Under the pieces are notes generated by a model, which was not told the DNA's origin, did not search any database, and saw only the letters and a list, made by a program, of their open reading frames with translations. Source: Candidatus Heimdallarchaeum aukensis (lineage in GTDB: Archaea > Asgardarchaeota > Heimdallarchaeia > Heimdallarchaeales > Heimdallarchaeaceae). Taken from it: a stretch of DNA of 64,000 nucleotides. Below, one piece after another: positions 8,657 through 59,802 of the stretch. The stretch is taken from assembly GCA_021513695.1 (NCBI GenBank), contig CP084166.1, positions 1,856,001 through 1,920,000 of the forward strand. The letters run 5' to 3'. Position numbers and translations under genes: made by a program. How positions within the stretch are numbered: the first letter of the stretch is position 1; every line of letters starts with the position of its first letter.

Positions 8657-8762
8657 AAGCCAAATAGTGGAGCCAGGACGGGGATTTGAACCCCGGAGGC
8701 ATAAGCCAGCGGTTATCTCTCTGATGTTTCGAGACCGCCTCCGTACCACTAGGATATCCTGG
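8657..8762 (-). tRNA. tRNA-Ser (anticodon CGA) with an anticodon-loop intron of about 13 nt
   Basis: Reverse complement: GCCAGGA acceptor, 3-bp D stem, anticodon stem GCGGT/ACCGC with loop CTCGAAA plus a CATCAGAGAGATA insert, a long variable arm, and T arm CGGGG-TTCAAAT-CCCCG. 3' strand TCCTGGC-T-CCA. Confidence 0.65.
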
Positions 8763-8903
8763 CAAAGGAAAAGTTCATTGTCTTGATTTTCATTGAAGTC
8801 AATATTTTAAGATTTCTACCTTGTTCACTTTTTAATTGATATAAGTACATTTGTGTTTCTTGATATTTTCGAACAAACAAAGATATGGTTAAAAAAAGAA
8901 AAG

Positions 8904-25934: not shown

Positions 25935-26279
25935 CTAATCATATTCTCTCCAAGTGTGACCACATTCCACGCACCGGAAAAACCGAGTTGGAGATTCATC
26001 TGCACTTCTAGTCTGTCGTTGCCAATAGGTAACCCTCTGCTTCTTTTCACATTTTGGACAGTATAATTCTCTTGTAGGCAAGGTTTCATCAATCGCAGAC
26101 TCGTCAATAACCTCCGACTTTAATAACTCTCTTTCTATATCATGGTTAATTTCCTCTGTAAATGAATTATCTTGGGCATCACTAATTTCCTTTGTATAAC
26201 CGCATTTTGTACAAATTAATTTACTACTTTCTGGTATCAATAATTTTCCACACTTAGGACAAAATTCCAATAGTATCAC
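25935..26279 (-). CDS. tfs: Transcription factor S (TFS / RpoM-like)
   Basis: 114 aa with an N-terminal zinc ribbon (CPKCG...CTKCG) and the C-terminal TFIIS-type ribbon CPKCEKKQRVTYWQRQTRSADESPTRFFRCVECGHTW carrying the RSADE acidic loop. Confidence 0.9.
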   Translation of the reverse strand: MILLEFCPKCGKLLIPESSKLICTKCGYTKEISDAQDNSFTEEINHDIERELLKSEVIDESAIDETLPTRELYCPKCEKKQRVTYWQRQTRSADESPTRFFRCVECGHTWREYD

Positions 26280-41459: not shown

Positions 41460-42023
41460 TTATCGCACTTCAATACGTTTCTTTTCAACTGCCTTTATTA
41501 ATTCACGAGCAAAAGTTTGAAATGCCTCTTCTACCTTTTCTCCAGTTTTAGCACTAGTTATGAAGAATGAATCTGTAGGTAAATCAAGTTCTTTTACTAT
41601 ATTAAGTGCTTCCTCTTCATCAACAGCAATTTGATCTTTTAGATCGGCTTTATTACCAATAACAAAAAATATTACGTCATCCTCTACCCCATTTAATCCA
41701 CGTTTCCATTCACGTATAGATTCTAACGTGTTAGGCCTTGTCAGATCAAAAACAAGAAAGCACCCTTTTGACCCACGATAAAACTTCTCTCTAACAGAAG
41801 AAAACCTTTCTTGACCCCCAATATCTGAAATCAAAAATAATACCTCGTCCTCCCCCACAAATAATTGTTTACTTAAAATGTCTACCCCAATAGTGATCAT
41901 ATACGATGATTCAAATCGATTATGGACATATCTTGAAATTAATGAACTTTTGCCTACTCCGGGATCTCCAAGTAAGACAATTTTAAATATGTATTTTTTT
42001 CCCTGAGATTTATTTAGAGTCAT
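41460..42023 (-). CDS. Ras-superfamily small GTPase, Rab-like
   Basis: 187 aa with G1 GDPGVGKSS, switch I YMITIGVD (Rab-like TIGVD), G3 DIGGQERF, G4 GNKADL and G5 TSAK. Confidence 0.75.
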   Translation of the reverse strand: MTLNKSQGKKYIFKIVLLGDPGVGKSSLISRYVHNRFESSYMITIGVDILSKQLFVGEDEVLFLISDIGGQERFSSVREKFYRGSKGCFLVFDLTRPNTLESIREWKRGLNGVEDDVIFFVIGNKADLKDQIAVDEEEALNIVKELDLPTDSFFITSAKTGEKVEEAFQTFARELIKAVEKKRIEVR

Positions 42024-42154: not shown

Positions 42155-42463
42155 TTAAACAGTATTATCCCAAATGTTGAATAATTGTTTTAATGAGTGA
42201 GCTCTAATATTTTGATCTTGATATTGAAATATTCGAATTCTACCAAAAGTTTTTTCTTTTACTAAACCAATTCTTACCAGATATTCTAAATGATTAACTA
42301 CAACTCCATGATTTAACTTCACTTGTTTAGATATTGCAGATATGTTAATTTCTCCTTTCTCAGCCAAAAGTTTCAAGATTTTTACTCTCCCACGAGAAGA
42401 TAAGACCTCATCTATTGGTGGAGAACTCGTAGATTTAATACTCTGATTATTTATTTTAGCCAA
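42155..42463 (-). CDS. Winged-helix transcriptional regulator, putative
   Basis: 102 aa with a predicted HTH (RVKILKLLAEKGEINISAISKQVKLNHGVVVNHLEYLVRIGLV). Confidence 0.4.
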   Translation of the reverse strand: MAKINNQSIKSTSSPPIDEVLSSRGRVKILKLLAEKGEINISAISKQVKLNHGVVVNHLEYLVRIGLVKEKTFGRIRIFQYQDQNIRAHSLKQLFNIWDNTV

Positions 42464-43682
42464 CCTCCTTTTTTTGACTTACTTCACCTTTGCTCTTTGT
42501 TAAAGATTTCAATATAACATCTTCAATAAATGCCAAAGGAGCATCAGGAACACTGATAAGTGTTGTTTTTCCTTTCATTCCTTTTCCTGAAAGTTTGCAG
42601 TTAATAATATCTTGTTTTGAAAGTTCATTCAAATAAGACCAAAACTGAGTATGCTTTCTGGGGTGTTCGCCATACTCTTCGCAGAGCAAGCGATATGTAC
42701 TTATAGCATCGCTTGTTGAAATATATGCATTTTTTGTATGTTTAAGTTTTCGCAAGATAGACAACAATGTCAGTTTCTCGTGAATGGAAAGAACTAACAC
42801 AACCTCCTTACGTAACTCTGGATGAATTAACGACTTTGCTTTTCTTACATGATCAGGATAAACAACAGGAGAGTTGTCGTTATCACAACAATGTCCAGCA
42901 CCCCAAAGTAGTTCAATGGCATATCGAGCATCACCAGTTTTACTTGCAATATCAGCAATAAGCCTTATTGCATCATCTGTAACTGTTTCTTTATAAAAAG
43001 CCAGTTCAGCTCTTGATCTAACAATATCAATTAAATCAGATTCAGAATATCTGTCCAACGATATGTGATTAGAGTGAAAACTACTTTGTGTACTTGTGTC
43101 AAGTAGTTTCAAGAAATTAGTATTTTTTGCGATAAAAATGTAGGAAACATATTGATCTTGTGATATTTCTCCAATTCTTAATAGAGAATATAAGATATCA
43201 GTTCCAGTACGTGTGACTAAGTAATCAATTTCATCAAGAACTATCAGCAGCTTATATTTATTCTGCTGTAAATGCTTCACAAAAAAATGCTGTAATTCTT
43301 CAACAGAATAACCTCTTTGCGGGATATTTTTGTTCAGTTTTTGTAGAAGGACATTAAATATCAAATAAGGACTTTTATAAATACGGCAATTTATATATAT
43401 AAAGTGAAAATTTTTAATTTTAACTACATTTTCTAAAATTTGACCAAATCTTTTCGCAAGTGTGGTTTTGCCAGAACCTGTTGGGCCAGTAATAGTTGCA
43501 TAACGGCTAAAATTAAGATAATTATTTGTTAAATGTTTATATTGCTTTGCCAAGAGTCTTAGCTCTTCTTCACGATGGGGGAGTAAAGGTGGAATAAAGG
43601 AAATTGATAAATAACCTTCATTTTTAATCACGGAAGGTTTTTCAGCTAATAATTTAAAATAATCTTCATCAGATGAATACAT
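42456..43682 (-). CDS. orc1: Orc1/Cdc6 replication initiation protein
   Basis: AAA+ Walker A TGPTGSGKTT, Walker B LIVLDEIDYL, LPHREEEL motif and C-terminal winged helix. The start is set at Met29 (MYSSDEDYF), which is preceded by TTTATATTTATAG. The ORF extends to 43766. Confidence 0.8.
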   Translation of the reverse strand: MYSSDEDYFKLLAEKPSVIKNEGYLSISFIPPLLPHREEELRLLAKQYKHLTNNYLNFSRYATITGPTGSGKTTLAKRFGQILENVVKIKNFHFIYINCRIYKSPYLIFNVLLQKLNKNIPQRGYSVEELQHFFVKHLQQNKYKLLIVLDEIDYLVTRTGTDILYSLLRIGEISQDQYVSYIFIAKNTNFLKLLDTSTQSSFHSNHISLDRYSESDLIDIVRSRAELAFYKETVTDDAIRLIADIASKTGDARYAIELLWGAGHCCDNDNSPVVYPDHVRKAKSLIHPELRKEVVLVLSIHEKLTLLSILRKLKHTKNAYISTSDAISTYRLLCEEYGEHPRKHTQFWSYLNELSKQDIINCKLSGKGMKGKTTLISVPDAPLAFIEDVILKSLTKSKGEVSQKKEVG

Positions 43683-43891
43683 TTTGCTTTCTATAAATAT
43701 AAATATGAACATAGTATTTATAGTTGATACAGACACCTTATTGAAAGTGAAAAAATCAATTTTCAATAGAGTAAAAAAATACCGTTTATAAGAATGGAAG
43801 ACATAAAATGTAATTTCCTAAAATAAAAAGATGGCAAAAATGATAAGAGAGAAAATATTTGAAGCTAAAAAGATATAACAATTTGATTAAT

Positions 43892-44421: not shown

Positions 44422-47340
44422 TCATAGTTCAATGCTTAAACTTTTTCTCTTCTTATAAAATTTGATACCAATAAAACTAATAGCTGAAATAGTAAGAGAT
44501 CCTATAGCAAGAGGAATAAAGATAACTGTATTGTTAAAACTATTATTAATACCAATCAGATTAAGCAACAAATAGGTTCCCTCAGCAAGTTCAAGTCCAC
44601 TAATTTTTACATAGGAGTAAGAGATAACTATTTTGTATGTGTCGGTAATTTCCAGCCCATTTGAATTAGTGATCTTCCAATCGTAGGAACTAAGAGATGT
44701 ATTAATATTTGAATATAAGAGTATAGATGCATTTTTGTACAAATAGGAAGCATAGATTTTTAGTTGAAATTGGATTTCATTATTAGTGACATAAGACTTA
44801 ACATTCAATTGTGGACCCTTACAAATAATAACAAATTTATGTGAATATGTAGAACTATTAGCTTTAACTTGCCAATAAAAAGATGTATTATCCCATGTCA
44901 CTGGAATCATAAATAACCCCGTATCAATATAGGCATTTAGAACAGGAGGAATGCCGTCAACCATAGGTAAAAACCATCTATCATTTTGAGCGCTATATTT
45001 GATCCAATAAGAAAATGTTACATTATTACCGAGTAACAACTCATCATCAGTTTTATCAACATCGACTTTCAGAATTTGGTTAATTATTGTAAATGTTTTT
45101 ATCTTAATAATGGAAGAATATCGCATAATATGCAAAGTTACATTGATAGACAAAATATTAAGAGGAACTAAAATCTTATTTTGGAAGTATCCCATTTCAT
45201 CAGTGATACCAGATAAAGCACCACCGGAGCCAGATATATTTCCTATATAAAATTTTAAAGGAGCAAAAGCAACAGGAAAACCATCACAAGACACATTCAG
45301 ATTAATTGAATAATACTTATCATTCAAGGAAAAATAGTCTAGTACGACGTTAAGAGGGCTTTCATATGAAATGAGAGAAATAATCTTAACAACTGATGCA
45401 TGAAATGTAGAGAAAGCCATTATCTTAACAGTATGATTTCCTAAGCTTAAGTAATACATTGAAACAATAAAATCTACTTCTGTTATATTTGTGAAAGAAT
45501 ATACTTTTGTATCATCGAGAAATACATAAATTGAAGAATTTTCGATTGAAATATTATTTCCCAAGCTATGATAAGAAAGGTTGACAGATGTACTTCCATA
45601 TTGTGGCAGGGTTAAACTGTCTACAATGGCAATATCTGCCGCGTAGCGCGTTAAACTGATATTACAAGAATAATAAAAAATTGTCGAGTTAAGATTCAGA
45701 AAAATTATTGAGTACTCTCCTCTTGGAATAATAGAAGGAAAACGATATTCAAGCATGTTGTTTTGAATATCTAAAATCACCCCCCCACTTACAGGTCCAA
45801 TCCAAAAAAAGTTTGTTTTAATTGAAAGACTATTGAAAGTGAGATTAAATTCTACATTGAGGGTTTCAAATAGGATAGACGATGTGAGAACAATGCTTTT
45901 CACATTGTTTTGGATAGCAAATATTGTTACTAAGCTACTTGTATTACAAATTAACAGTTCATACTGATCAAAGTCTTCAAACTCATTGACAGAGATAAGT
46001 GTAACATATTGAGAATTATATTCAACTAGAGACCAATTTAATGGAATACCGATAACAACACCAAAAACTCCAGTGACAATATTATCAATTGAAACATTGA
46101 ATAAAATTTCATCGGGTGGGACAAGCAATAACTGTCTCTTAGAGAATAGTGATATGTTTCCAATAGCTTGTAAACTAAATTGCCCTTCAACAGTATAAGA
46201 AGAATTTAATGAAAAAATAAGATTAACATCTGTTTTTTCTTCAACATGCACTTGAATTGAAAACGAACCCTTTAGATCATCAATGCTATTAACTAAAGAT
46301 CCATTTAATTTAAGTTCAATTTCTTCAGGAATAGGTTGAGACTCTATTTTAAGATTATCAAAGAAAAATGAACTTTCAGATTGTTCTGGTGATATCACAA
46401 AGATACTAAATCCTTCTAGCTGAGAAGGAATATTTGAGGAAAATTCTGATAATATTGCTGATAAATTTAATGACAAACTATTCCAATTATCATCCCACGT
46501 TGTATTTCTTACAAATTTAAAAGTATCATAATCACCAGAAGTATCATTTTGACCTACTTGTTCCAATCCGACATTACTGTAAACCCAGTTATATATCGCT
46601 ACTCTACACGTATCAAAAGTAAAATCGAAAATTACACTGGAGTTTATAACATTTTGAATTGAAGAATTACTATCAAACTTGTAGTCATAAGAGAGAATAA
46701 TATTTCGACTAAATAATGATAAATCTTTCATATAGGTTGAATATTTTAAAGAAGTAGTATTATTTGCATAAATCTTCCACGAGTAATTACCAGACAATCC
46801 ATTACTTGTAAGATAGCGTTGTAATTCGATTCCTGTATGAACTGAATCATTAGCGTAAAAACTCTCTGCTGTTTCTGCTCCTGAATTCTGAATTATGTTA
46901 GCTTTCAAATCTGAAACATTACCCACAAGAAAAAAATCTCCTTTTTCTGGAAGTGTTATCCCTATTTCTTTATCTGAGAGGTTTAAATAATTTAGATCAC
47001 TTTTATATCGCCCATTTAATTCGATTTTCGGAGCAAAATTGGATATCGTTTTATTATAATCAACGTTAATATTTTCATCGACAGTTATCGAATTTTTCAA
47101 GTAAGTTATTGAAGAGTTAGATGACGATGTTTGTATTAATGGCTCATTTGTCTCAGAGTATACAATTTGTGCTTTAGGAAGAGATGTTTTTGTAAAAACA
47201 GAAGAAATAGAATCAGATTCTGTAAGCGCATTTAATAAAGTTGAATTCTGTATATCCAAGAAAGAAAATTGCCCTATTATAATAGTAATCATCAGCACAA
47301 TTAATAATTGCTTATTAATCGGATTAGATTTTAATTTCAT
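44422..47340 (-). CDS. Large surface/extracellular protein with N-terminal signal-anchor and C-terminal TM helix
   Basis: 972 aa. Rich in Ser/Asn/Thr, with many N-x-S/T sequons. Hydrophobic N-terminus and a C-terminal hydrophobic helix followed by a KKRK stop-transfer. Confidence 0.4.
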   Translation of the reverse strand: MKLKSNPINKQLLIVLMITIIIGQFSFLDIQNSTLLNALTESDSISSVFTKTSLPKAQIVYSETNEPLIQTSSSNSSITYLKNSITVDENINVDYNKTISNFAPKIELNGRYKSDLNYLNLSDKEIGITLPEKGDFFLVGNVSDLKANIIQNSGAETAESFYANDSVHTGIELQRYLTSNGLSGNYSWKIYANNTTSLKYSTYMKDLSLFSRNIILSYDYKFDSNSSIQNVINSSVIFDFTFDTCRVAIYNWVYSNVGLEQVGQNDTSGDYDTFKFVRNTTWDDNWNSLSLNLSAILSEFSSNIPSQLEGFSIFVISPEQSESSFFFDNLKIESQPIPEEIELKLNGSLVNSIDDLKGSFSIQVHVEEKTDVNLIFSLNSSYTVEGQFSLQAIGNISLFSKRQLLLVPPDEILFNVSIDNIVTGVFGVVIGIPLNWSLVEYNSQYVTLISVNEFEDFDQYELLICNTSSLVTIFAIQNNVKSIVLTSSILFETLNVEFNLTFNSLSIKTNFFWIGPVSGGVILDIQNNMLEYRFPSIIPRGEYSIIFLNLNSTIFYYSCNISLTRYAADIAIVDSLTLPQYGSTSVNLSYHSLGNNISIENSSIYVFLDDTKVYSFTNITEVDFIVSMYYLSLGNHTVKIMAFSTFHASVVKIISLISYESPLNVVLDYFSLNDKYYSINLNVSCDGFPVAFAPLKFYIGNISGSGGALSGITDEMGYFQNKILVPLNILSINVTLHIMRYSSIIKIKTFTIINQILKVDVDKTDDELLLGNNVTFSYWIKYSAQNDRWFLPMVDGIPPVLNAYIDTGLFMIPVTWDNTSFYWQVKANSSTYSHKFVIICKGPQLNVKSYVTNNEIQFQLKIYASYLYKNASILLYSNINTSLSSYDWKITNSNGLEITDTYKIVISYSYVKISGLELAEGTYLLLNLIGINNSFNNTVIFIPLAIGSLTISAISFIGIKFYKKRKSLSIEL

Positions 47341-48218: not shown

Positions 48219-49259
48219 TTGGGAAAAATGGCAGAACTGTATTGTGATGAATGTAATTCAAGGATTATAGAAGAAACAGGAAGATATGTATGCCCTAATT
48301 GTGGCCTAGAATTAGGCGCTGTGTATGAAAGCAGTAACTATCAACTAGGAATGGTGGAAGAACCTTTGAAAAGGAGAAAAACACAATATGCGGCAATAGA
48401 CAATCAACTTGCAACTGTAAGTTCACTTGGGTCTTCAATAGGTACAATCAAAGAATATTACTTTAAAGACACATATGGGACCGCTTTATCACCATTAAGA
48501 CAAGAGCAATTTAGGAAATTCAAAAATCTATATCATGTTGCTAGTGCAGTAAAAGGAAAGGAAACTATCCACCGATCTCTTACAATAGTGAATAAAGTCT
48601 GTAAGATATTAGATATTCCAGAACAAGTAAATAATAGAGCCATATTTTTATTTAAAAAATACAAAAGAGAATTCACAGAGGAAATTAATAATCACGTTGT
48701 TTTATCTGCTATATCACTGTTATTGGCAGTAAGAGAATCAAAAAATACATGCCCAGTACAGTTTAAAGAAATAGTTGAGACATATAGTGAATTGGGACAT
48801 CGTGTTTCAGGAAAAAAGATCATAAGTTTAATGCAAACACTAAACATAAAGTTACCATCTTCAAGAATTAGAAGAAGTGAAGAGTATATTTCACGAGTTA
48901 GTTACTTAATTTGCTCATATCCTGAAATCAAAGAAAGAGTTGAATCAAAGTATAAAATTGAATCATTTGTGTATGAAAAAATATTACAATTAGCTTGTTT
49001 TAAGATTCTTGCTGAAATCCCAAATAAGGACAGAGGAAGTAGGAGACCCTACCCTTTTGCTGCAGCAACAGCATATACCGCAGACAAATTATTTGCACGT
49101 GAGATGAATACATCATCAGCGTTTACACAGAAACTAGTAGCAAAAGCTACAAATGTAGCAGAGTTCACTGTAAGAGAACATTCAGAGTTAATTTTCAAAT
49201 ATGATTATAAAAACATATTTGAAGAGATATCAAGAAACTTAAGTTCGAATTTTTCTTAA
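48219..49259 (+). CDS. tfb: Transcription initiation factor IIB (TFB)
   Basis: 346 aa with an N-terminal zinc ribbon (CDECNS...CPNCG) followed by cyclin-like repeats. The size is consistent with TFB. Confidence 0.65.
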   Translation: MGKMAELYCDECNSRIIEETGRYVCPNCGLELGAVYESSNYQLGMVEEPLKRRKTQYAAIDNQLATVSSLGSSIGTIKEYYFKDTYGTALSPLRQEQFRKFKNLYHVASAVKGKETIHRSLTIVNKVCKILDIPEQVNNRAIFLFKKYKREFTEEINNHVVLSAISLLLAVRESKNTCPVQFKEIVETYSELGHRVSGKKIISLMQTLNIKLPSSRIRRSEEYISRVSYLICSYPEIKERVESKYKIESFVYEKILQLACFKILAEIPNKDRGSRRPYPFAAATAYTADKLFAREMNTSSAFTQKLVAKATNVAEFTVREHSELIFKYDYKNIFEEISRNLSSNFS

Positions 49260-49368
49260 CATAGTTTATTTTTTTACTAAATATCTTTCTGAAATTACAC
49301 ACTGAAAACGCATAAATAAAAGAAAAGAAAAATTGTGGTGTTGATAAATAATAATCTAATACTAACTA

Positions 49369-50739
49369 ATGAATATGAAGCAACTGATTGAGTTAGAAGA
49401 AGATAAGAATTATGAGAAAGAAATTACGGAAAATTATAAAATAAGAGGCTTTAACGTAAAAATAATAAAATCAAATGATAGACTCTATTATATACCAGAA
49501 CCAATTTTTGATTTTGACGAATATACCTATTTATTTTCAGAACTAGTAGATATGTTATATAATATGAAAGATCGCTTAAGTGATAGAATCTTAAAGTTAG
49601 ATGAATTAATAAAAACAGTATCATCTATTATTTTTAGTAGATTAGAAAAAGAAAAATCTATTGTAGAAGATAAAAACATTATAGTGGAACTATTTACATA
49701 TAAATTAATTAAATTGGATAAATTAATGCCACTTTTCTATGATAACAGAATTAATGAGATATATATAGATAATGCAAAAACAGCAATATATATTGATCAT
49801 CAACTTTTTGGACGTTGTGAAACTACAATAGTTCTGTCAGAAGAAGAAATGCAAGCTTTAATTGCAAGACTAAAGCTAGAACACCCAATTTCGGTTTCAT
49901 ATAAAAATCCTTCATTAAAAGTAGAACTAGTATCACAATATTTTCATTTAAGAGTAGCAATTGATTTCCCACCATTATCACCAAATGGGCCAACTGTTAA
50001 TATAAGAAAAATAAAGGCAAATCCACTCACAATTTATGATTTAATCACTCTAGACTCATTTCCCCCAATAATTGGAGCTTACTTCATCGAAGCTGTTAAT
50101 CAAAGAAAAAATATAACCATAATAGGAGAGCCAAATGCAGGAAAAACAACGCTAGCAAATGCAATTGATTTATACACCCCAAAATTTTGGAGAAAAATTG
50201 TAATTGAAGATGCAATAGAATCTATAAATCAAAATAGATTAGGTTATAAACAAACAGTGATACAAGTAGATTCTTTTGATTCAAATAAATCAGATTACAA
50301 TAAAACGTCAGAGATTTTGAAATTGTTACACAGATCTCCTGACTGGATTTATTTAGGAGAGATACAAACAAAGGAACACACGAAGGCAATGTTTGAAGCT
50401 CTAAATGCAGGGCTAAAAGGAATCCAAACAGCACATTCTGATTCATTCGAGAAGTTGATTCGAAGATGGTCAAATTATGGTGTCTCAATGGACGATTTTC
50501 TCTCATTAGAAGTTGTAATAGTAATGGAGAGAAAAATAACTAATAATGGAAAAATATTACGAGTAGTTAAAGAGATATTTGAGATAAATGATAAAAACAA
50601 AAGCAAAAATCTTACTTTTTATCAAAAAGTATATGAAAAAACGTGGAATATGTCCAAAATTTGCGAAAGTTTACAAAACAATTCAATATTATCAGAAAGA
50701 TATGAACATATTTTATCGATAGAAAAAGAATTGCAATAA
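49369..50739 (+). CDS. Type IV pilus/secretion ATPase of the TadA/FlaI/VirB11 superfamily
   Basis: 456 aa with Walker A GEPNAGKTTLANA, an Asp box (VIEDAIE), Walker B/His box (WIYLGEIQTKEH...AHSDSF), and an N-terminal NEIYID region. Confidence 0.7.
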   Translation: MNMKQLIELEEDKNYEKEITENYKIRGFNVKIIKSNDRLYYIPEPIFDFDEYTYLFSELVDMLYNMKDRLSDRILKLDELIKTVSSIIFSRLEKEKSIVEDKNIIVELFTYKLIKLDKLMPLFYDNRINEIYIDNAKTAIYIDHQLFGRCETTIVLSEEEMQALIARLKLEHPISVSYKNPSLKVELVSQYFHLRVAIDFPPLSPNGPTVNIRKIKANPLTIYDLITLDSFPPIIGAYFIEAVNQRKNITIIGEPNAGKTTLANAIDLYTPKFWRKIVIEDAIESINQNRLGYKQTVIQVDSFDSNKSDYNKTSEILKLLHRSPDWIYLGEIQTKEHTKAMFEALNAGLKGIQTAHSDSFEKLIRRWSNYGVSMDDFLSLEVVIVMERKITNNGKILRVVKEIFEINDKNKSKNLTFYQKVYEKTWNMSKICESLQNNSILSERYEHILSIEKELQ

Positions 50740-50756
50740 TTGAAAATGGGGTATAA

Positions 50757-51569
50757 TTGTTGAATGAATATGTTACTAAAAAATTTGAAAATGAAAAATT
50801 ATATAATGTTATATCAAGATTTATCGTTGAAACATTATTGGTTAAAATTCAATTCAAAAAAGTAGAAACATCAATTTTTCCTGAGCATGTTAAGAAGTTA
50901 GTAACAAGAAGCAATATTGCATTTCTTCTCTCAATATTCATATTAGTAATTCAGCTAGTATTTATTAAATTAAATCTTCTATTGACAATATTTGTTTCAA
51001 TAATCACATATATTACAATTTTAGAAATATCAGCATTATCAACAGTATCAGCAATTTTAAGGCAAAAAAGTAAATTTGATGAACAGACATTCTTATTTAT
51101 TAATTCGCTTTCTATGAGTATGACAACGGTTCAATCACTACCTTTTGCTCTTGAAATGACAAATAAATTTGATATTCAAAATTCGAAATTAAGAAATTTT
51201 CAGAAGAAATTGATGTTCCAATTAAATTTAAATACAAATGAATCGCAAGTTTTGGAGAATGAAAAAAACTTTTTTGAGCATGAGGGATATCAACAAGCAT
51301 TTTCAAGAATAGCGAGAAAGGAATCTTTTATTGAATCAGACCCTTATTTTTTAAACAAAATAAAAAGAGAAATGACCGCTATTGAAGATAATATTTCCAT
51401 ATTCATAACTTTTTCTTCATTACTACCGCTAATTTTAAGCCTTATTGTGTCAATTATTCTTCCTAGTAATTCTTTTCTTATTTTCTTATTTCCATTATTG
51501 TATTCCCTAATTGGATCTTTTATTTTGCAATTCATACAATTTAGTAATGTTGGTGAAAAAAATGATTAA
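50757..51569 (+). CDS. TadB/TadC/FlaJ-like polytopic membrane protein (T2SS-F domain), first of two
   Basis: 270 aa with hydrophobic helices flanking a central soluble segment. Position immediately downstream of the ATPase. Confidence 0.45.
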   Translation: MLNEYVTKKFENEKLYNVISRFIVETLLVKIQFKKVETSIFPEHVKKLVTRSNIAFLLSIFILVIQLVFIKLNLLLTIFVSIITYITILEISALSTVSAILRQKSKFDEQTFLFINSLSMSMTTVQSLPFALEMTNKFDIQNSKLRNFQKKLMFQLNLNTNESQVLENEKNFFEHEGYQQAFSRIARKESFIESDPYFLNKIKREMTAIEDNISIFITFSSLLPLILSLIVSIILPSNSFLIFLFPLLYSLIGSFILQFIQFSNVGEKND

Positions 51570-52179
51570 ATTAAATGTTTCAGATAATACATTTTTAAAT
51601 GATATGGCAACATTATTAGAGGAAGGACATAATATTGAACAAGCAATATTCAACATACCATATATGGCAAGAGATGTATTATTAGAAATACAGCTTGGTT
51701 CTAATCCGATAAAGGCTCTATCACTTATAGAATTTCAATATCCAGTTATTATTAACTTGCTTGGTTCATTATCAAATGCCAATCACAAGGAAAACATAAC
51801 CAGAATAAAAGTAGTAGCAGCTCTTATAAAAAAGCGAAATGAAGCAATAAAAGAAAAAGAAAATTTAGTAAACATATTAAATCGAAGATTGAAGATAATT
51901 AGGATCATTACATTAGTAACTATTGCTATTATTGGAGGTATAGCTCCATTTTTCTCAGGTATATACTCTTTTTTAATAGACGGTCATATAAAATATTCAT
52001 TTGATTTATTTTCACCTATGTCAATTTCTTTTCTATTAATTAACTTACTGAATAATTATTTTCTGTTATCAATTAGCAAGGAGAGCAAAATTGGGTTAAA
52101 ACTAATTATAGCAGCTATAGTTCATATTGCAATCGTCTTAAGTGTAAAGATACTCTTTGGAGGAGTTGTTACTTTCTAA
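51511..52179 (+). CDS. TadB/TadC/FlaJ-like polytopic membrane protein, second of two
   Basis: 222 aa. N-terminal soluble helical segment (LLEEGHNIEQAI...) then two or three TM helices. Overlaps the preceding ORF, so the start is probably the internal Met. Confidence 0.45.
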   Translation: MDLLFCNSYNLVMLVKKMIKLNVSDNTFLNDMATLLEEGHNIEQAIFNIPYMARDVLLEIQLGSNPIKALSLIEFQYPVIINLLGSLSNANHKENITRIKVVAALIKKRNEAIKEKENLVNILNRRLKIIRIITLVTIAIIGGIAPFFSGIYSFLIDGHIKYSFDLFSPMSISFLLINLLNNYFLLSISKESKIGLKLIIAAIVHIAIVLSVKILFGGVVTF

Positions 52180-52294
52180 AAAAATTAACTATAAAATTCT
52201 ATCCAATCAAGTTAGAAACTTGAACAAAATTAAATCAACTTAATTAAGTACCGACAAACTTAAAAATCTCATATTGGCTCATAATACAAGAGAA

Positions 52295-52379
52295 GAGGAG
52301 ATTGCCGAGCGGTCAAAGGCGCTGGGATGAGGACCCAGTCCTTAGTGGTTCGGGAGTTCGAATCTCCCTCTCCTCACCA
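52295..52379 (+). tRNA. tRNA-Leu (anticodon GAG); CCA encoded
   Basis: Acceptor GAGGAGA/TCTCCTC, anticodon stem CTGGG/CCCAG with loop ATGAGGA, long variable arm, T arm GGGAG-TTCGAAT-CTCCC, then A-CCA. Confidence 0.8.
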
Positions 52380-52434
52380 CTTTTACAATTTTAAAAAATG
52401 TGGTGCTTATATAATTCTATAAGGATAATAAATA

Positions 52435-52617
52435 GTGGAAATGAAGAATATAATAAAAAATTTTAAACTTATACTAAAAAACAAAAAAGGTTCACCAATT
52501 CTAGAAGAAATTTTACTTATAGGAGTAGCCATTTTTATTTTTGTTATAGTTTTTACTGTTGTGTCAAGCATGTTAGATTGGGCCGAAGAAAATATAAAAG
52601 ACTTCTTTTTCTCATAA
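52435..52617 (+). CDS. Flp/Fap-like prepilin (class III signal peptide), putative
   Basis: 60 aa. A basic N-terminus ...KNKKG|SPILEEILLIGVAIFIFVIVF places Gly at -1 and Glu at +5 from the predicted cleavage site (the G/xxxxE pattern), followed by one hydrophobic helix. Confidence 0.4.
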   Translation: MEMKNIIKNFKLILKNKKGSPILEEILLIGVAIFIFVIVFTVVSSMLDWAEENIKDFFFS

Positions 52618-52655
52618 ACTCTTCTAAAAAAAGCAGTAAAATTATAGAAAAGAGT

Positions 52656-52733
52656 GGCGAGGCAGCCGGGATTTGAACCCGGGTCCATGGAGTGACAGTC
52701 CACGATCATCGACCGAGCTAAACTACTGCCCCG
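52656..52733 (-). tRNA. tRNA-Asp (anticodon GUC); CCA encoded
   Basis: Reverse complement: GGGGCAG acceptor, D arm GTTTAGCTCGGTCGATGATC (homologous to the canonical tRNA-Asp/Glu D arm), anticodon stem GTGGA/TCCAT with loop CTGTCAC, T arm CCGGG-TTCAAAT-CCCGG. Confidence 0.7.
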
Positions 52734-52980: not shown

Positions 52981-53922
52981 ATGTCTCGCAATCTTATTCT
53001 TCTTACGCTACTTAAACACGCAGGATATATTCATGGAAGAATACAGTTCCAAAAATACGTTTTTCTTTTAGAACACAATTATCACCTAAATACTGGCTAT
53101 TCTTTTATTCCATTTAAATACGGACCGTACTGTCAAGCGTTACAAGAAGATTTGGAAGATTTAATAGAATATGGTTACATTTTCCACATTGAGGAAGATC
53201 GAGGAGACGGAGAAGTGATTCATAGATATCAACTAACAGAGTATGGTGAAGAATATTTACTAGAACACGACATTCCAGAAATTTACGAGCAAGTTATACA
53301 AGATCTATGCTACGATTTCAAAAACTATAGCATTAGACAGCTAATAGAGTATGTTTATGAAAATTATCCAGAATTTATAATAAATTCCGAAATAAAAACG
53401 GAATATTACAAGAAATATCCTCCGCTAAAAGATTTTATTCCTGCTAGTTCTCTTCAAAAATCAAACCCAATAATAACTCCCTCATTTACAAATTGGTTAG
53501 ATGAAGAATTAAACCTCATAAAAAAACAACTTAACGTAAAAGATTCAAACGATGAACTTGAATTTGAAATTGATGAACTAGTACTATCAATGTTTGAAAT
53601 AGCTTATGAAGACATCTACTCCGTTGTCGAGGAAATTTCATTTAATCTAATAATGGAAGACTTTGATGAATCAGGATCTATTAACACCCTACTTTATTAT
53701 ATTCTTGACATTTTAGAATCGCTGCTAAATGCACTCCGAGAAAATGATTTAATAACAGTTTATACGGAAATTACCAACATTAAAACTAATCTCTTAATGT
53801 TGAAAGAAAAAGTAGCTTTGAATAAAATATCACTAAAGTCGGAAATAACTAGAAAATTAGGTGAATTCATAGATGACACCAGATATTTAATAGATAGTAT
53901 TGATAAGGTAATTCTTCTCTAA
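52981..53922 (+). CDS. Hypothetical acidic protein with an N-terminal Panacea (DUF4065/SocA)-like segment
   Basis: 313 aa. The N-terminus RIQFQKYVFLLEHNY....GYSFIPFKYGPYCQALQEDLEDLIEYGY fits the Panacea pattern LQKLLY....G.P.F...F.A..YGPV....Y. The remainder is acidic and low complexity. Confidence 0.35.
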   Translation: MSRNLILLTLLKHAGYIHGRIQFQKYVFLLEHNYHLNTGYSFIPFKYGPYCQALQEDLEDLIEYGYIFHIEEDRGDGEVIHRYQLTEYGEEYLLEHDIPEIYEQVIQDLCYDFKNYSIRQLIEYVYENYPEFIINSEIKTEYYKKYPPLKDFIPASSLQKSNPIITPSFTNWLDEELNLIKKQLNVKDSNDELEFEIDELVLSMFEIAYEDIYSVVEEISFNLIMEDFDESGSINTLLYYILDILESLLNALRENDLITVYTEITNIKTNLLMLKEKVALNKISLKSEITRKLGEFIDDTRYLIDSIDKVILL

Positions 53923-56397: not shown

Positions 56398-59300
56398 ATG
56401 TCCAAAACTAAATTGAATAGCAGCTCACAAAAAAACAATAATGATAGGTGGGTTTACATAAATCGAATGTTTGACGAACTTGGATTAGTAAGACAACATC
56501 TCGACAGTTTTAATTCCTTTATTGAGCACGGTTTACAATCAGTTCTTGAGGAAATAAAAATCATTGAACCTGAAGATAGTGACTATTATATTCGATTAGA
56601 CAAAATAGAAGTAGAAGAACCAACTGTTCGTGAAGCAGACGGGTCTCAAAGTACAATTTATCCAATGGAAGCAAGAATTAGAAATTTAACTTATGCATCC
56701 CGAATGTTTTTGTATATGACTCCAATCAAGAGGGAAGCAGAGGGAGAAATAGACACTCCAAAAGAACAAGCTAGAGTATTTATTGGTTATTTACCTATTA
56801 TGCTAAAATCAAAAAAGTGTTCGTTATATAACCTATCGAAAGAGAGTTTAATTAGAAATGGTGAAGATCCAAGCGATCCAGGCGGATATTTTATAATTAA
56901 TGGAAGCGAAAGAGTAATTGTAACACAAGAAGATTTAGCACCCAATCGCATTTTAATAGAAGATGTATCAAGTAAAGGAAATATCACTTCTGAAGCCAAG
57001 GTATTCAGCGTAATTCATGGATTTAGAGCGCCAGTAACAGCTGAGCATACAGCTGATGGACAATTAAGAGTAAGCTTTCCTAGTATGCCAAGAAAAATAT
57101 CTTTGATTCTTTTAATGAGGGCGCTTGGAATAGAAAGAGATGATATGATTGCTATGGCAATAAGCCCTACGCCAAAACTTAGATCTCGCGTAATGTCAAT
57201 CCTCATGAGAGAAGATTCAGATATTGATTCAACAGAGAGTGCTCTTGACTATATTGGAAAGAGAGTAGCTGTTGGTCAGACAAAAGAATATAGAATAAAT
57301 AGAGCCCAACAAGTATTAGACAAGTATTTATTGCCACATTTAGGTAGTGACGAAAAATCTAGAATAAGGAAAGCATTCTTTTTGGCAAGGATGGCACAAA
57401 GATTACTAGAACTAGAAGCTGGAATTCGTCCAAAAGATGATAAAGATCATTACGCAAATAAAAGGTTGAAACTTGCAGGAGATCTTTTGTTAATGCTGTA
57501 CAGAGTAGCATTTCATGCTCTCTGTAGAGATATAAAATATCAATTGGAAAGAGTTACAGTAAGAGGAAAGAAACCAAACTTAAAAACCGCAGTGAGGGCA
57601 GATTTAATTACAGAAAGATTAAGACACGCTCTCGCCACAGGGAACTGGACCGGAGGAAAATCCGGAGTTAGTCAATTATTAGATAGAACAAACTACATGT
57701 CTGCATTAAGTCATTTAAGAAGAGTAGTAAGTCCATTAAGTAGAAGCCAACCTCATTTTGAAGCAAGAGATTTACACCCTACGCATTATGGAAAAATATG
57801 CCCAAATGAAACTCCTGAAGGGCCAAATTGTGGTTTAGTAAAAAATCTAGCTTTGCAAGCTTATATAAGCGTTGGAATTGATGAAAAAGTAGTTGAACAG
57901 AAACTCATCAAACTATTAAATTTGATTCCTATTAACTACGAAGAAATGACAACACCAGATTCTCCAGGAATGGATCTGTTAAAAGATCCTCAAAATACAA
58001 AAATATTTCTTAATGGAAGGTTCATTGGAATAGCAAAAGATGGTTGGGAATTCAGAAATAAGCTTATAGAAAAACGACGAAAAGGAGAATTTCATCATGA
58101 AGTTAACGTTTCATTCTATGAAGAAACTAATGAATTAATTATCAACTGTGACGCGGGAAGAGTAAGAAGGCCATTAATTGTTGTTGAAAATGGTGTTCCT
58201 TTAACATCTAAGATACCAGAATCCAAAGTTGCAAAAATAACTTGGTCAGAATTAATTCAAATGGGTGTCATCGAATACGTAGATGCAGAAGAAGAAGAGA
58301 ATTTACTTATTGCGCTAGATGAAAAGGGCATTACTAAAGAAACAACTCACATGGAAATTACTACAAGTACAATATTGGGAATATGTGCATCCTTAATTCC
58401 ATACCCAGAACACAATCGTTCAGATCGTAATGTATATGAAGCGGGTATGGCCAAACAAGCTTTAGGAGTATACGCAGCTAATTTCAAGTATAGAGTAGAC
58501 ACAAGAGCGCACATTCTTCATTATGCACAAAAACCTCTAGTAAAGACTCATGGAATGGATGCAATAAACTTCGATAACAGACCAGCAGGACAAAATTTCG
58601 TAGTAGCTGTACTTTCTTATGAAGGGTACAATATGGAAGATGCTCTTCTAATAAACAAAGCATCAATTGAAAGAGGATTAGGGAGAAGCACATTCTATAG
58701 AACATATGAAGCTGAAGAGCGAAAATATCCTAATGGACAGGAGGATACATTTGAAGTCCCAGACGACACAGTAAGAGGATATAAAGATGTGTCTCAGTAT
58801 GTTCACCTTGGAGAAGATGGCATAATCGAACCAGAAATAGAAGTAGATGGTAATCGAGGAGAAGTCTTAATTGGAAGAACTAGCCCCCCAAGATTTTTGG
58901 AAGAATATACTGAATTTGATGTACCACCACAAAACAGGAGAGAGACAAGTAAAGCAATGAGGCATGGAGAAAAAGGAATAAGCGATATGGTTATTTTAAC
59001 AGATACAAATGAAGGTAATAAGTTAGTAAAGGTTAGAGTTCGTTCAGATAGGATCCCTGAAATTGGCGATAAGTTTGCTTCAAGACATGGTCAAAAAGGA
59101 GTAATTGGATTAATAATACCACAAGAAGACATGCCCTTTACTGAGAACGGAATTGTTCCAGATATTATAATTAATCCTCATGCAGTGCCTAGCAGAATGA
59201 CAGTGGGAATGCTTATGGAACTCTTAGCTGGAAAAGCCGCAGCACAAAGAGGAAAAGAGATTTATGCTACAGCTTTTAGTGAAGTTTCAATTAAGGATTT

Positions 59301-59802
59301 AGAAGATCTTTTAGAGACAATGGGATTGCATCCACTAGGCAGAGAAGTAATGTATGATGGAAAAAGCGGTAAAAAACTTGAAGGGACAATATTCTTTGGT
59401 TCCGTATTTTATCAGAAACTACATCACTTAGTTCAAGATAAAATACATGCTAGAGCGAGAGGACCAATACAAATGCTGACACGACAGCCTACAGAAGGTA
59501 GAGCAAGAGAGGGTGGATTGCGATTTGGAGAAATGGAACGAGATTGTTTAATTGGACATGGAACATCAATACTACTGAAAGAAAGATTACTAGATGAATC
59601 TGACAAAACTGAAGCTTTTATCTGCTCAAAGTGTGGATTTTTAGCAATGCATGATAAAAATAAAGACAGGTATCATTGTCCAGTGTGCAAAGAAGAAACA
59701 ACTGTGTCAAGAGTAATAATAAGCTATGCTTTCAAACTATTACTACAAGAATTAATGTCACTAGGTATTGCACCACATATTGAACTCGAAGACATAGCTT
59801 AA
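56398..59802 (+). CDS. rpoB: DNA-directed RNA polymerase subunit B (unsplit Rpo2)
   Basis: 1134 aa with the NADFDGD-partner region, Rpb2 fork/hybrid-binding domains, and a C-terminal zinc ribbon CSKCG...CPVC. No intein and no B'/B'' split. Confidence 0.95.
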   Translation: MSKTKLNSSSQKNNNDRWVYINRMFDELGLVRQHLDSFNSFIEHGLQSVLEEIKIIEPEDSDYYIRLDKIEVEEPTVREADGSQSTIYPMEARIRNLTYASRMFLYMTPIKREAEGEIDTPKEQARVFIGYLPIMLKSKKCSLYNLSKESLIRNGEDPSDPGGYFIINGSERVIVTQEDLAPNRILIEDVSSKGNITSEAKVFSVIHGFRAPVTAEHTADGQLRVSFPSMPRKISLILLMRALGIERDDMIAMAISPTPKLRSRVMSILMREDSDIDSTESALDYIGKRVAVGQTKEYRINRAQQVLDKYLLPHLGSDEKSRIRKAFFLARMAQRLLELEAGIRPKDDKDHYANKRLKLAGDLLLMLYRVAFHALCRDIKYQLERVTVRGKKPNLKTAVRADLITERLRHALATGNWTGGKSGVSQLLDRTNYMSALSHLRRVVSPLSRSQPHFEARDLHPTHYGKICPNETPEGPNCGLVKNLALQAYISVGIDEKVVEQKLIKLLNLIPINYEEMTTPDSPGMDLLKDPQNTKIFLNGRFIGIAKDGWEFRNKLIEKRRKGEFHHEVNVSFYEETNELIINCDAGRVRRPLIVVENGVPLTSKIPESKVAKITWSELIQMGVIEYVDAEEEENLLIALDEKGITKETTHMEITTSTILGICASLIPYPEHNRSDRNVYEAGMAKQALGVYAANFKYRVDTRAHILHYAQKPLVKTHGMDAINFDNRPAGQNFVVAVLSYEGYNMEDALLINKASIERGLGRSTFYRTYEAEERKYPNGQEDTFEVPDDTVRGYKDVSQYVHLGEDGIIEPEIEVDGNRGEVLIGRTSPPRFLEEYTEFDVPPQNRRETSKAMRHGEKGISDMVILTDTNEGNKLVKVRVRSDRIPEIGDKFASRHGQKGVIGLIIPQEDMPFTENGIVPDIIINPHAVPSRMTVGMLMELLAGKAAAQRGKEIYATAFSEVSIKDLEDLLETMGLHPLGREVMYDGKSGKKLEGTIFFGSVFYQKLHHLVQDKIHARARGPIQMLTRQPTEGRAREGGLRFGEMERDCLIGHGTSILLKERLLDESDKTEAFICSKCGFLAMHDKNKDRYHCPVCKEETTVSRVIISYAFKLLLQELMSLGIAPHIELEDIA

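Follow-up and report, generated by a model that had tools for sequence, protein, structure and literature searches.

A TFB-linked cassette for a probable Tad/Epd-like filament machine in Heimdallarchaeum aukensis: a candidate Asgard version of archaeal subclade 4D

What kind of machine is encoded by a compact group of genes around a secretion ATPase in the Asgard archaeon Candidatus Heimdallarchaeum aukensis, and is it bacterial or archaeal in type? The genes lie in a stretch of 64,000 nucleotides (nt) of contig CP084166.1 (the window; positions are counted from its first letter) and run in the order TFB-like gene, T2SSE ATPase, platform gene 1, platform gene 2, tRNA-Leu(GAG) and a small open reading frame (ORF). 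An earlier note on this DNA had read the part from the ATPase onwards as a bacterial-type Tad/Flp-like pilus locus. That note was unaware of the TFB/TFIIB paralog upstream, of a locus-specific promoter element and of a second tRNA gene. With these in hand, we consider it probable that the cassette encodes a minimal, Tad/Epd-like filament machine of archaeal type, ancient and vertically inherited, whose expression is set by the linked TFB paralog.

Of all known organisms, Asgard archaea stand closest to eukaryotes, and it is through structures on the cell surface that they make contact with their syntrophic partners. Surveys call type IV filament systems rare in this group. In particular, a recent preprint describes them as widespread ‘except [in] the Asgardarchaeota’, with a few Heimdallarchaeia carrying core components only (bioRxiv 10.64898/2026.04.22.720090), and the archaeal subclade 4D is held to be pilin-less and maybe a remnant. 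The complete minimal core found here (ATPase, split platform and Flp-like pilin), conserved across Asgard and TACK lineages, offers candidate genes for the pili imaged on cultured Heimdallarchaeia, and some of its features should interest specialists in both the archaeal cell surface and transcription.

Relatives of the cassette are found far beyond Heimdallarchaeum. A collection holding one genome per species was sampled through two ATPase peptide patterns, 80 loci were retrieved by way of an ATPase alignment, and iterative hidden Markov model (HMM) searches were run over all ORFs of these loci; the non-redundant count is 81 loci. Many are cut by contig ends, and the family counts are lower bounds. 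The cassette is present in every Asgard class (Heimdall-, Hod-, Hermod-, Odin-, Loki/Prometh-, Thor-, Baldr-, Borr-, Sif-, Wukong- and Atabey-archaea) and, outside Asgards, in Bathyarchaeia, Thermoprotei, Brockarchaeota and Nitrososphaerota; each sampled genome has one such locus or, in a few cases, two. Platform protein 1 was found in 66 of the 81 loci, platform protein 2 in 65, the small protein in 55, a TFB-like homologue (within 7 kb) in 70 and a large surface protein in 31. Platform gene 2 directly follows platform gene 1 in 61/64 loci, and the small gene starts less than 200 nt after the end of platform gene 2 in 19. Most loci outside Heimdallarchaeaceae share one prevailing order, namely TFB-like gene, ATPase, platform 1, platform 2 and small protein; the window therefore preserves this ancestral arrangement, except for a tRNA gene that was inserted ahead of the pilin gene.

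The ATPase itself (49369-50739, plus strand; 456 amino acids, aa) belongs to the T2SSE or FlaI-GspE-TadA superfamily, as the earlier note had recognized. It matches PF00437 (T2SSE) with an E-value (E) of 2.1e-16 and 60 bits (cut-off 24.9), and its Walker A motif, GEPNAGKTT, is intact. Its place within the superfamily was judged by bit-score ranking against NCBIfam and the PDB. The cut-offs of the named NCBIfam subfamilies FlaI, BasE and TadA are all missed: the best scores are 117 bits for FlaI (NF058587, cut-off 550), 77 for BasE (cut-off 1000) and 58.9 for the TadA family (TIGR03819, cut-off 373). Among solved structures, the window protein scores 104 bits with the GspE of Archaeoglobus fulgidus (afGspE, 2OAP), 78 with Sulfolobus FlaI and 47 with bacterial CpaF, and the family profile keeps this ranking (136, 105 and 73 bits, respectively). 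The alignment with 2OAP, the best solved-structure match, spans residues 18-416 and includes the N-terminal domain; the similarity is distant, its E of 9e-29 marking shared family membership, not orthology, and the partner system of this GspE is uncharacterised. Closer to home, the ATPase is 99% identical to a protein from a metagenome-assembled genome of Heimdallarchaeaceae and 82% identical to its homologue in Ca. H. endolithica, which the PGAP annotation names ‘TadA’. Judged by these scores, the protein is a secretion ATPase of archaeal type; it is not a bacterial TadA, and it is not the motor of an archaellum either.

A degenerate archaellum (FlaI/FlaJ) locus is contradicted by several lines of evidence, and we give it next to no chance. 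FlaI is the best NCBIfam match of the ATPase, but its 117 bits lie far under the equivalog cut-off of 550; the outcome that the earlier note had named as refuting its reading, an ATPase that groups with archaellum FlaI, is not borne out by the scores. Moreover, the platform consists of two single-domain proteins and not of one FlaJ. The window holds no archaellin-like class III candidate besides the small ORF, in line with the earlier note, and no FlaF/G/H-like gene was recognized in the locus or its relatives. The predicted subunit would also be a 41-aa helix without a globular domain.

Two polytopic membrane proteins follow the ATPase. Platform protein 1 (50757-51569, plus strand; 270 aa) has, from its transmembrane (TM) profile, two N-terminal TM segments, a cytoplasmic helical domain of ~110 aa and two C-terminal TM segments (~4 in total). 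Platform protein 2 (51562-52179, plus strand; 205 aa; an exact match to public P0128) begins with a cytoplasmic helical domain, which is followed by 2-3 TM segments. The longest ORF for the second protein runs from 51511 to 52179 (222 aa); the start at 51562, which overlaps the stop of platform gene 1 by 8 nt, is the one used by the public annotation and by relatives. Both of the ~220-270-aa membrane proteins of the earlier note are present, but the second is more likely 205 aa long. Their families were assembled by jackhmmer over the ORFs of the 81 loci. The T2SSF domain (PF00482) is matched by 16/39 members of the platform 1 family and by 7/40 of the platform 2 family, the best match of the latter having an E of 1.2e-6. 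For platform 1, 15 of the 25 remaining members (set A8, from other Asgard and TACK archaea) match PF00482, the best with 35.4 bits (cut-off 25.2) over profile positions 2-123 of 125, and hhalign joins this set to the Heimdall-only one (A7, of Heimdallarchaeaceae sequences) at 98.4% (E 4.6e-15, 228 columns). For platform 2, the Heimdall-only set (A9) aligns with the remaining members (A10) at 99.2% (E 1.5e-19). The two platform families also share a weak likeness in the cytoplasmic domain (38%, E 3e-4). On this profile evidence both membrane-protein families are homologous to T2SSF, the window copies being linked to it transitively via the family profiles. The claim of a TadB/TadC-like split instead of a single FlaJ/ArlJ thus holds at the family level; in the T2SSF search that the earlier note had proposed, it is the family members that match, and not the window copies.

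Other approaches to the platform proteins gave little. PDB profile searches with both families found nothing significant (the N-domain of PilC, 2WHN, at E 0.16 only), and a word-indexed search with platform protein 1 returned close relatives only, at 80-100% identity. An AlphaFold2 model of platform protein 1, built on a five-sequence alignment, was unusable (predicted local distance difference test, pLDDT, 43; predicted template modelling score, pTM, 0.22). Two loci depart from the usual arrangement: in L037 (8347-9843) both platform proteins are fused in one ORF of 498 aa, and in L035 (8107-9327) a 406-aa ORF, TnpB-type-transposon-like by eye, stands between the two platform genes.

Does a split platform make the system bacterial? 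Denise et al. report that archaeal Epd-like systems have a split platform too, and that it probably goes back to a two-domain archaeal platform gene which broke into two (PMC6668835). A split into single T2SSF domains is the TadB/TadC architecture and is equally common to Epd-like systems; therefore, it does not discriminate between bacterial and archaeal types. The proposal that a Tad/Flp locus was acquired horizontally from Bacteria can draw on the tadA-tadB-tadC-like gene order, on a mature pilin of ~40 aa with Gly at -1 and Glu at +5, and on the PGAP name of the H. endolithica ATPase. Against it, the ATPase scores top for archaeal GspE and FlaI and bottom for CpaF, the TadA model stops at 59 bits where 373 are needed, and the close homologues are all archaeal. 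The synteny extends over Asgard and TACK archaea, the cassette is embedded among genes for Orc1/Cdc6, a NusA-KH protein, Sec61beta and an RNA polymerase B subunit, and GC content is uniform (27-39% across an AT-rich window, with no compositional break at the cassette). Indeed, because the flanks are housekeeping genes (also for a HIT protein, a cyclophilin and a Ras-family GTPase), the cassette lies outside any mobile island. No homologue of TadZ/CpaE, TadV/CpaA, the RcpA/CpaC secretin, TadD or TadE/F/G was recognized in the neighbour families of the 81 loci or in Pfam scans of the locus genes and partial flanks. In addition, published phylogenies derive bacterial Tad from archaeal Epd-like systems and not the reverse (PMC6668835). 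Bacterial transfer is contradicted by this evidence and must be regarded as very unlikely, and the label ‘bacterial-type rather than archaeal’ was given up: the TadA/CpaF model does not claim the ATPase, the synteny is that of Asgard and TACK archaea, and the traits behind the label are already archaeal.

The small ORF is the one part of the locus that might have arisen by chance. It may start at GTG 52435 (60 aa, the length given in the earlier note) or, more likely, at ATG 52441, as in relatives, which gives a Flp-like prepilin candidate of 58 aa (52441-52617, plus strand). It is a real gene and not a chance ORF, because homologues occur in 55 of the 81 loci and changes are concentrated at third codon positions. 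H. endolithica has the same small gene at the same place, and the two copies differ by 10 synonymous and 3 non-synonymous codon changes (4, 0 and 10 differences at codon positions 1, 2 and 3), a pattern that indicates purifying selection. The segment KKGSPILEEILLIGIAIF is nearly unchanged even in distant Heimdallarchaeaceae whose ATPases are 55-60% identical. The gene is unannotated in the H. aukensis record and uncalled in locus L005. An antisense ORF of 100 aa over the small ORF was dismissed as spurious; it merely runs across the neighbouring tRNA-Asp gene.

The encoded protein reads MKNIIKNFKLILKNKKG up to the predicted cleavage site and SPILEEILLIGVAIFIFVIVFTVVSSMLDWAEENIKDFFFS after it. 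A basic leader of 17 residues ends in KKG, Gly is at -1 and Glu at +5, and a hydrophobic stretch of ~22 residues follows; the predicted mature peptide has 41 aa (SPILEEILLIG...DFFFS). The family consensus is a class III-like, basic leader ending in [KR][GA], then [SAGT][PQ][LI][ILV]-E-E-[GI]-L-L after the cut. Glu+5 is invariant in alignments of 28, 50 and 84 family members, and the KKG/SPILEE signature noticed earlier is present in the window copy. AlphaFold2, run with the alignment of 50 sequences, predicts a short leader helix and one long helix over residues 15-57 (pLDDT 85), with no globular domain; Foldseek found nothing in the PDB for this model, as expected of a single helix.

How close is this protein to Flp pilins? 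The window copy finds nothing in PF04964 (Flp_Fap) at E<=0.1, and has EE, not EY, at +5/+6. Its family reaches further. A word-indexed profile search collected 493 family proteins at E<=0.01, all of ~55-90 aa, which are ‘hypothetical’ at NCBI and in many cases ‘Flp pilus assembly pilin Flp’ (COG-based) at JGI. An exhaustive profile search of 1.84 billion representatives gave 151 clusters at E<=1e-3, all but one of 44-151 aa; the odd one is a 1,655-aa repeat protein, matched through a short repeated LIEEGLLI. The clusters form a gradient from the archaeal GSPLVEEGLLLG form through GGSLIEYGLIIGF intermediates (GGS-L/M-I/V-E-Y/S-G-L) to one classical Flp, EEGAALVEYGLLIALIAV, which the profile reaches at E 4e-4 and which scores 40.8 bits with Pfam Flp_Fap (cut-off 32.2). 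Flp_Fap is matched by 10/84 members of the extended family, mostly below cut-off. Pilin_N matches are weak (5/28 members, best 1e-3), the Class_IIIsignal model matches no family member, and the top PDB matches are Geobacter PilA-N pilins, non-significant (E 0.12-0.24) and aligned on the leader, the cleavage site and Glu5. Weak matches of the small protein to SecE, TRIQK and Deltameth_res were judged compositional. From its sequence relationships, we class the protein as an archaeal relative, though a distant one, of Flp pilins. The earlier assignment to the Flp/Tad type is borne out as far as a short, all-helical, Flp-like subunit with a profile path to Flp_Fap is concerned, and fails for the window ORF itself in the PF04964 search.

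The small ORF might instead have nothing to do with the machine. On this view, a single-pass membrane peptide of another kind (SecE-like, say, or a regulatory TM peptide) would be encoded nearby by coincidence, and the true pilins would have their genes elsewhere; we give this a slim chance. The window protein is unmatched in Pfam and NCBIfam, a few family members have weak SecE matches (best 1.6e-3 and 5e-5), in Heimdallarchaeaceae several kb separate the gene from that of the ATPase, and Foldseek is empty for a single helix. What speaks against an unrelated peptide is the company that the gene keeps: across phyla it stands directly after platform gene 2 or within the locus, and a locus-specific promoter element is common to it and the ATPase operon. 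Moreover, an invariant Glu+5 after [KR][GA] is a signature of pilins and not a feature of SecE, and the family profile reaches Flp_Fap proteins.

That promoter element is the second feature that ties the small gene to the cassette. Its consensus, (T/A)GTGG(A/T/G)G(C/T)TT(A/T)AATA, joins a G-rich hexamer (GTGGWG) directly to a canonical archaeal TATA box; upstream of the small gene it stands ~25-35 nt from the start codon. In the window, TGTGGTGCTTATATAA (52399-52414, plus strand) is an exact match to the consensus ~27 nt before ATG 52441, and a position weight matrix (PWM) scan places the promoter-like TGTGGTGTTGATAAAT (49334-49349, plus strand) 20 nt before the ATG of the ATPase gene. The element precedes the small gene in 29/55 loci as against 6/711 other (background) ORFs; the small genes that bear it include those of Loki/Hermod/Thor-type loci and of one Bathyarchaeia locus. 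Scanning both strands of all loci (2.19 Mb) gave 79 hits of at least 13 bits, ~29 of them before the small gene and ~32 at 19-56 nt before the ATPase gene of Heimdallarchaeaceae loci, in the form AGTGGTGTTGATATAC; in all, ~60/79 fall upstream of pilin or ATPase genes. That an intergenic 16-mer should persist between genomes with ATPases of only ~55% identity speaks for selection on it. Since the element stands before the pilin gene, that gene would be a transcription unit of its own, with a promoter signature common to the ATPase operon. A sigma-70 promoter and terminator scan was disregarded as irrelevant to an archaeon. In Loki/Hermod-type loci, weaker GTGGAG-TATA copies (14-15 bits) overlap or immediately precede the starts of genes for proteins of 308-314 aa downstream of the cassette (L039 7718-8662, L041 12030-12974, L049 10369-11295), the N-terminus of which is Roadblock/LC7 (MglB)-like by eye.

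What reads such an element? Directly upstream of the ATPase gene, ending 110 nt before its start, lies the TFB-like gene (48219-49259, plus strand; 346 aa). Its product has the build of a TFB, a CxxC...CxxC zinc ribbon followed by two cyclin-like repeats, and the four zinc-ribbon cysteines are invariant in the family. The window protein has no Pfam domain in public annotation and only weak matches in our own Pfam search (Zn_Ribbon_TF 1e-3, TFIIB 7e-3), and other members of the family likewise match the TFIIB zinc ribbon and cyclin repeat only weakly. The family profile, on the other hand, matches human TFIIB nearly over its full length (E 2.9e-18) and the core of Pyrococcus TFB (2e-12). By this profile match the protein is a full-length, divergent TFB paralog. 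Canonical archaeal B recognition elements (BRE) are A-rich. A G-rich hexamer in the BRE position, beside a divergent TFB gene, suggests by analogy that the paralog selects GTGGWG-TATA promoters. The cassette has its own TFB paralog and the same unusual element at both the ATPase operon and the pilin gene; therefore, we propose that the one reads the other. If true, the paralog and its locus-specific BRE-like motif would provide a clean example, open to testing, of an alternative general transcription factor that selects its own promoters in the lineage that led to eukaryotes.

Several other genes accompany the TFB-like gene in related loci. In 26 Asgard/TACK loci, a gene of ~140 aa with LSm and Lsm_C domains (Lsm_C E 3e-12 to 3e-21) lies divergently upstream of it (L035, L037, L038, L041-L045, L049, L051, L054, L058, L059, L062, L064, L065, L071, L073, L074, L076-L078, L080-L082, L084 and L085; e.g. 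L044 1613-2059, minus strand); it does not adjoin the window's copy. We had considered it as the RPB8 subunit of Makarova et al. and rejected this, the product being an LSm + Lsm_C protein. A second family, of ~131-146 aa, lies between the TFB-like gene and the ATPase gene on the opposite strand in 15 non-Heimdall loci (L039, L041, L042, L044, L045, L049, L051, L053, L057, L058, L062, L065, L068, L069 and L084; e.g. L044 3620-4015, minus strand) and was not seen in the window. These proteins combine an L-x-LEK motif at the N-terminal end with a single TM helix and a C-terminal part rich in beta structure; they have no Pfam match and could be minor-pilin-like or FlaF/G-like accessory proteins. 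Elsewhere in the window, the TFB-like profile weakly picks up an ORF of 114 aa with two zinc ribbons (25935-26279, minus strand), which by eye we take to resemble transcription factor S/RpoM, not TFB.

The pilin gene of the window has tRNA genes on both sides. ARAGORN places tRNA-Leu(GAG) at 52295-52379 (plus strand), between platform gene 2 and the pilin gene, where the earlier note had seen it, and tRNA-Asp(GTC) at 52655-52732 (minus strand), 38 nt beyond the stop of the pilin gene, towards which it is convergent. Both tRNA genes are placed alike in H. endolithica; tRNA-Asp is a flanking feature and not part of the machine. More generally, every pilin gene that has become separated from platform gene 2 has a tRNA gene within 100 nt (29/58 loci, all in the Heimdall group). 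The neighbour is tRNA-Leu(GAG), in varying orientation, in Heimdallarchaeaceae and tRNA-Glu(CTC) in a second clade of the Heimdall group. Loci with a tRNA-adjacent pilin gene are the window, L003, L005, L007, L009, L012, L016-L022, L029, L030, L032-L036, L043, L060, L072, L079 and L083. Rearrangement hot spots, or shared terminators or promoters, are possibilities that would account for this adjacency.

How might these parts work together? Drawing on the general workings of type IV filament machines, we infer pilin processing and filament assembly as follows. The hexameric T2SSE ATPase (49369-50739) would dock on a platform made of the two single-T2SSF-domain proteins (50757-51569 and 51562-52179), and would use ATP to raise the tiny pilin (52441-52617) out of the membrane and to build from its copies a thin helical filament or a short pseudopilus. 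Before this, a class III (A24) prepilin peptidase encoded elsewhere would cut the 58-aa precursor after Gly17 to leave a 41-residue, all-helical subunit, the invariant Glu+5 of which would pair with the N-terminus of a neighbouring subunit. The TFB paralog (48219-49259) would switch the system on by reading the non-canonical BRE, that is, GTGGWG abutting the TATA box.

A bolder proposal extends this mechanism, and we put it forward tentatively, as more doubtful than the mechanism itself. The cassette would be a self-contained unit of a transcription factor and the filament machine under its control, inherited from the common ancestor of Asgard and TACK archaea; the dedicated, full-length TFB paralog would recognize a G-rich BRE that marks the genes of the machine and no others, and the 41-residue pilin would be the subunit of the Heimdallarchaeia pili. 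In a still more radical form, the ATPase/platform complex would feed back on the TFB paralog, making a device for signalling from membrane to transcription. On cells of a cultured Heimdallarchaeia strain, ‘occasional pili of one type’ have been seen, and no gene has been assigned to them (bioRxiv 10.1101/2025.11.06.686947). These pili show that such filaments exist in the group; they do not tie them to this locus.

A number of observations weigh against a TFB-controlled filament machine. Neither platform protein of the window, nor its small protein, has a direct match in Pfam or NCBIfam, and the Flp link has one match above the Pfam cut-off, the others scoring 14-26 bits. Ser at +1 and Pro at +2 of the small protein presumably fall outside the FlaFind motif. 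The locus has no minor pilins, adhesins or TadZ/FlaH-like partners. An A24 prepilin peptidase was found neither in the window nor in the flanks of the 81 loci by a crude screen (at least 4 TM segments and GxG[DE]x[KR]), which is not a full HMM scan of every ORF; within that limit the screen agrees with the earlier note, which had reported no peptidase in the window. Two other polytopic ORFs of the window were ruled out as peptidases, being a PAP2 phosphatase and an antisense ORF. On the side of regulation, the loci that bear the promoter motif are kin to one another, and their counts are not independent events; the link from promoter to TFB paralog is one that we infer. Finally, adhesive pili do not usually evolve so slowly, have such an apparently broad and largely vertical distribution or stay tied to a transcription factor; it was features of this kind that led Makarova et al. 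to suggest a role other than a pilus for the similar 4D system (PMC4858521).

Several of these points would suit a machine that derives from type IV filament systems and has been repurposed, with no surface pilus: a membrane complex or a short pseudopilus serving secretion, membrane work or TFB signalling. Such a role is what Makarova, Koonin and Albers proposed in 2016 for subclade 4D of Pyrobaculum and Thermoproteus (PMC4858521). There, an ATPase with a small Cys-rich N-domain (arCOG05558), a protein of 4-5 TM segments (arCOG05557/13890) and a TFIIB homologue (arCOG05559) lie in one operon. The authors found no significant similarity of the 4-5 TM protein to other membrane proteins, noted that it might be a diverged TadC, reported ‘no potential pilins’, and suggested a shift from pilus biology to ‘some transcription-related pathway’ (PMC4858521). 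Sivabalasarma and Albers (2026) restate this picture (bioRxiv 10.64898/2026.04.22.720090). The cassette fits the 4D description, including the Cys-rich ATPase N-domain in its Thermoprotei relatives; the TFB paralog is nearly always adjacent; the locus lacks minor pilins, adhesins and a peptidase; and conservation across Asgard and TACK archaea, with ATPases 35-45% identical between phyla, is unlike that of fast-evolving pili. However, a conserved pilin-like gene with an invariant Glu+5, a strong promoter of its own and an affinity to Flp is present, Thermoprotei-type loci included, and this conserved substrate removes the main premise of repurposing, the absence of a pilin. A TFB paralog that controls a normal pilus also has a precedent in TFB3 and the ups genes, and pili have been seen on the cultured Heimdallarchaeia strain. 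We regard repurposing as possible but unlikely, and keep to a minimal, TFB-linked filament machine as the probable reading.

The surroundings of the cassette add some observations of their own. On its upstream side lies a gene for a 972-aa surface protein (44422-47340, minus strand; from TM profile and sequon count) with an N-terminal signal or anchor, a C-terminal TM anchor, 38 N-glycosylation sequons and no match in Pfam or NCBIfam. A homologue adjoins the TFB-like gene in 31 loci, in the Heimdall group only, and it is possible, if speculative, that this protein is an accessory surface or adhesin component. Some 650 nt past this gene stands Orc1/Cdc6 (42456-43766, minus strand), which is also near the cassette in other Heimdallarchaeaceae; therefore, a replication origin may be near. 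Also in the neighbourhood are a Ras-family small GTPase (41460-42023, minus strand) and the RNA polymerase B subunit (56398-59802, plus strand). Directly past the pilin/tRNA block, a gene for a 313-aa protein (52981-53922, plus strand; UniRef name Panacea domain-containing protein) has a weak SocA/Panacea antitoxin-like N-terminal domain (E 2e-3) and, among the sampled loci, is limited to the two Heimdallarchaeum species. Further away, ARAGORN reports a tRNA of 96 nt with a four-base anticodon (cgaa) at 8668-8763 (minus strand), which is probably an intron-containing archaeal tRNA, mis-parsed.

How does the cassette compare with known systems? With bacterial Tad/Flp loci it shares the order ATPase, platform 1 and platform 2, two platform proteins with a single T2SSF domain each, and a mature pilin of ~40 aa, predicted to be all-helical, with Gly at -1, Glu at +5 and then a G-L-L/I core, whose family profile reaches Flp_Fap. 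It differs from them in an ATPase nearer to archaeal ATPases than to CpaF, in an EE instead of an EY motif, in its TFB paralog and in its archaeal promoters. Short E+5 pilins and a split platform are known archaeal traits of Epd-like systems, and Epd is regarded as the closest archaeal relative of Tad (PMC6668835). The Epd pilus of Methanococcus maripaludis (archaeal ‘system 1’) resembles the cassette in being archaeal, in its two platform genes, in a short major pilin without a globular domain and in a Glu-containing, class III-like motif. Epd, though, takes up 11 genes, among them those for several minor pilins, for adhesin-like proteins and for a peptidase of the system itself, which the 2026 preprint calls EpdA and the name ‘EppA-dependent’ calls EppA (bioRxiv 10.64898/2026.04.22.720090), whereas the cassette is minimal, has no peptidase within it and carries a TFB paralog. 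If our reading holds, Tad-like traits (split platform and short E+5 pilin) also occur in an archaeal lineage other than the Epd clade, and this bears on the origin of bacterial Tad.

For the regulatory side, the nearest parallel is the Ups pilus of Sulfolobus, where the transcription of an archaeal type IV pilus likewise depends on a non-canonical TFB paralog. TFB3, as this paralog is called, is truncated, and its gene lies apart from the ups operon. It is induced by UV light (PMC6101591) and is needed for the induction of the ups pilus genes (PMC6101591, PMC6101594). The paralog of the cassette, in contrast, is full-length, with a zinc ribbon and two cyclin folds, and is physically linked to the genes that it would control.

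Subclade 4D remains the closest match as a whole, with a TFIIB homologue, a secretion ATPase and one or more diverged membrane proteins in one predicted operon. The Thermoprotei-type loci of our sample make the connection: they encode, in this order, a TFB-like protein, a ~125-aa protein, an ATPase of 570-580 aa that has the Cys-rich N-terminal domain described for 4D, two proteins with 2-3 TM segments and a small Glu+5 protein. Their membrane proteins align with the two platform families of the window at 94% and 96% (hhalign), and a pilin-like ORF follows the membrane-protein genes in L070, L074, L081, L082 and L085. Since these loci fit the 4D description and have homologous membrane proteins, we read the Heimdallarchaeum locus as an Asgard version of a 4D-like system, an equivalence judged from the published description. 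Compared with 4D as published, the cassette spans all Asgard classes and several TACK lineages instead of Pyrobaculum and Thermoproteus only, both of its membrane proteins can be traced to T2SSF, it includes a conserved Flp-like pilin gene, and the Heimdall ATPase is a short form (456 aa) without the Cys-rich domain. The pilin-like ORF of the Thermoprotei-type loci suggests that the published account missed a small gene, and not that it describes a different system; the pilin gene probably escaped notice in 4D because it is tiny and often uncalled. What would be new relative to the published picture, then, is a 4D-like cassette that is widespread in Asgard and TACK archaea, with membrane proteins that derive from T2SSF and with a pilin-like gene of its own.

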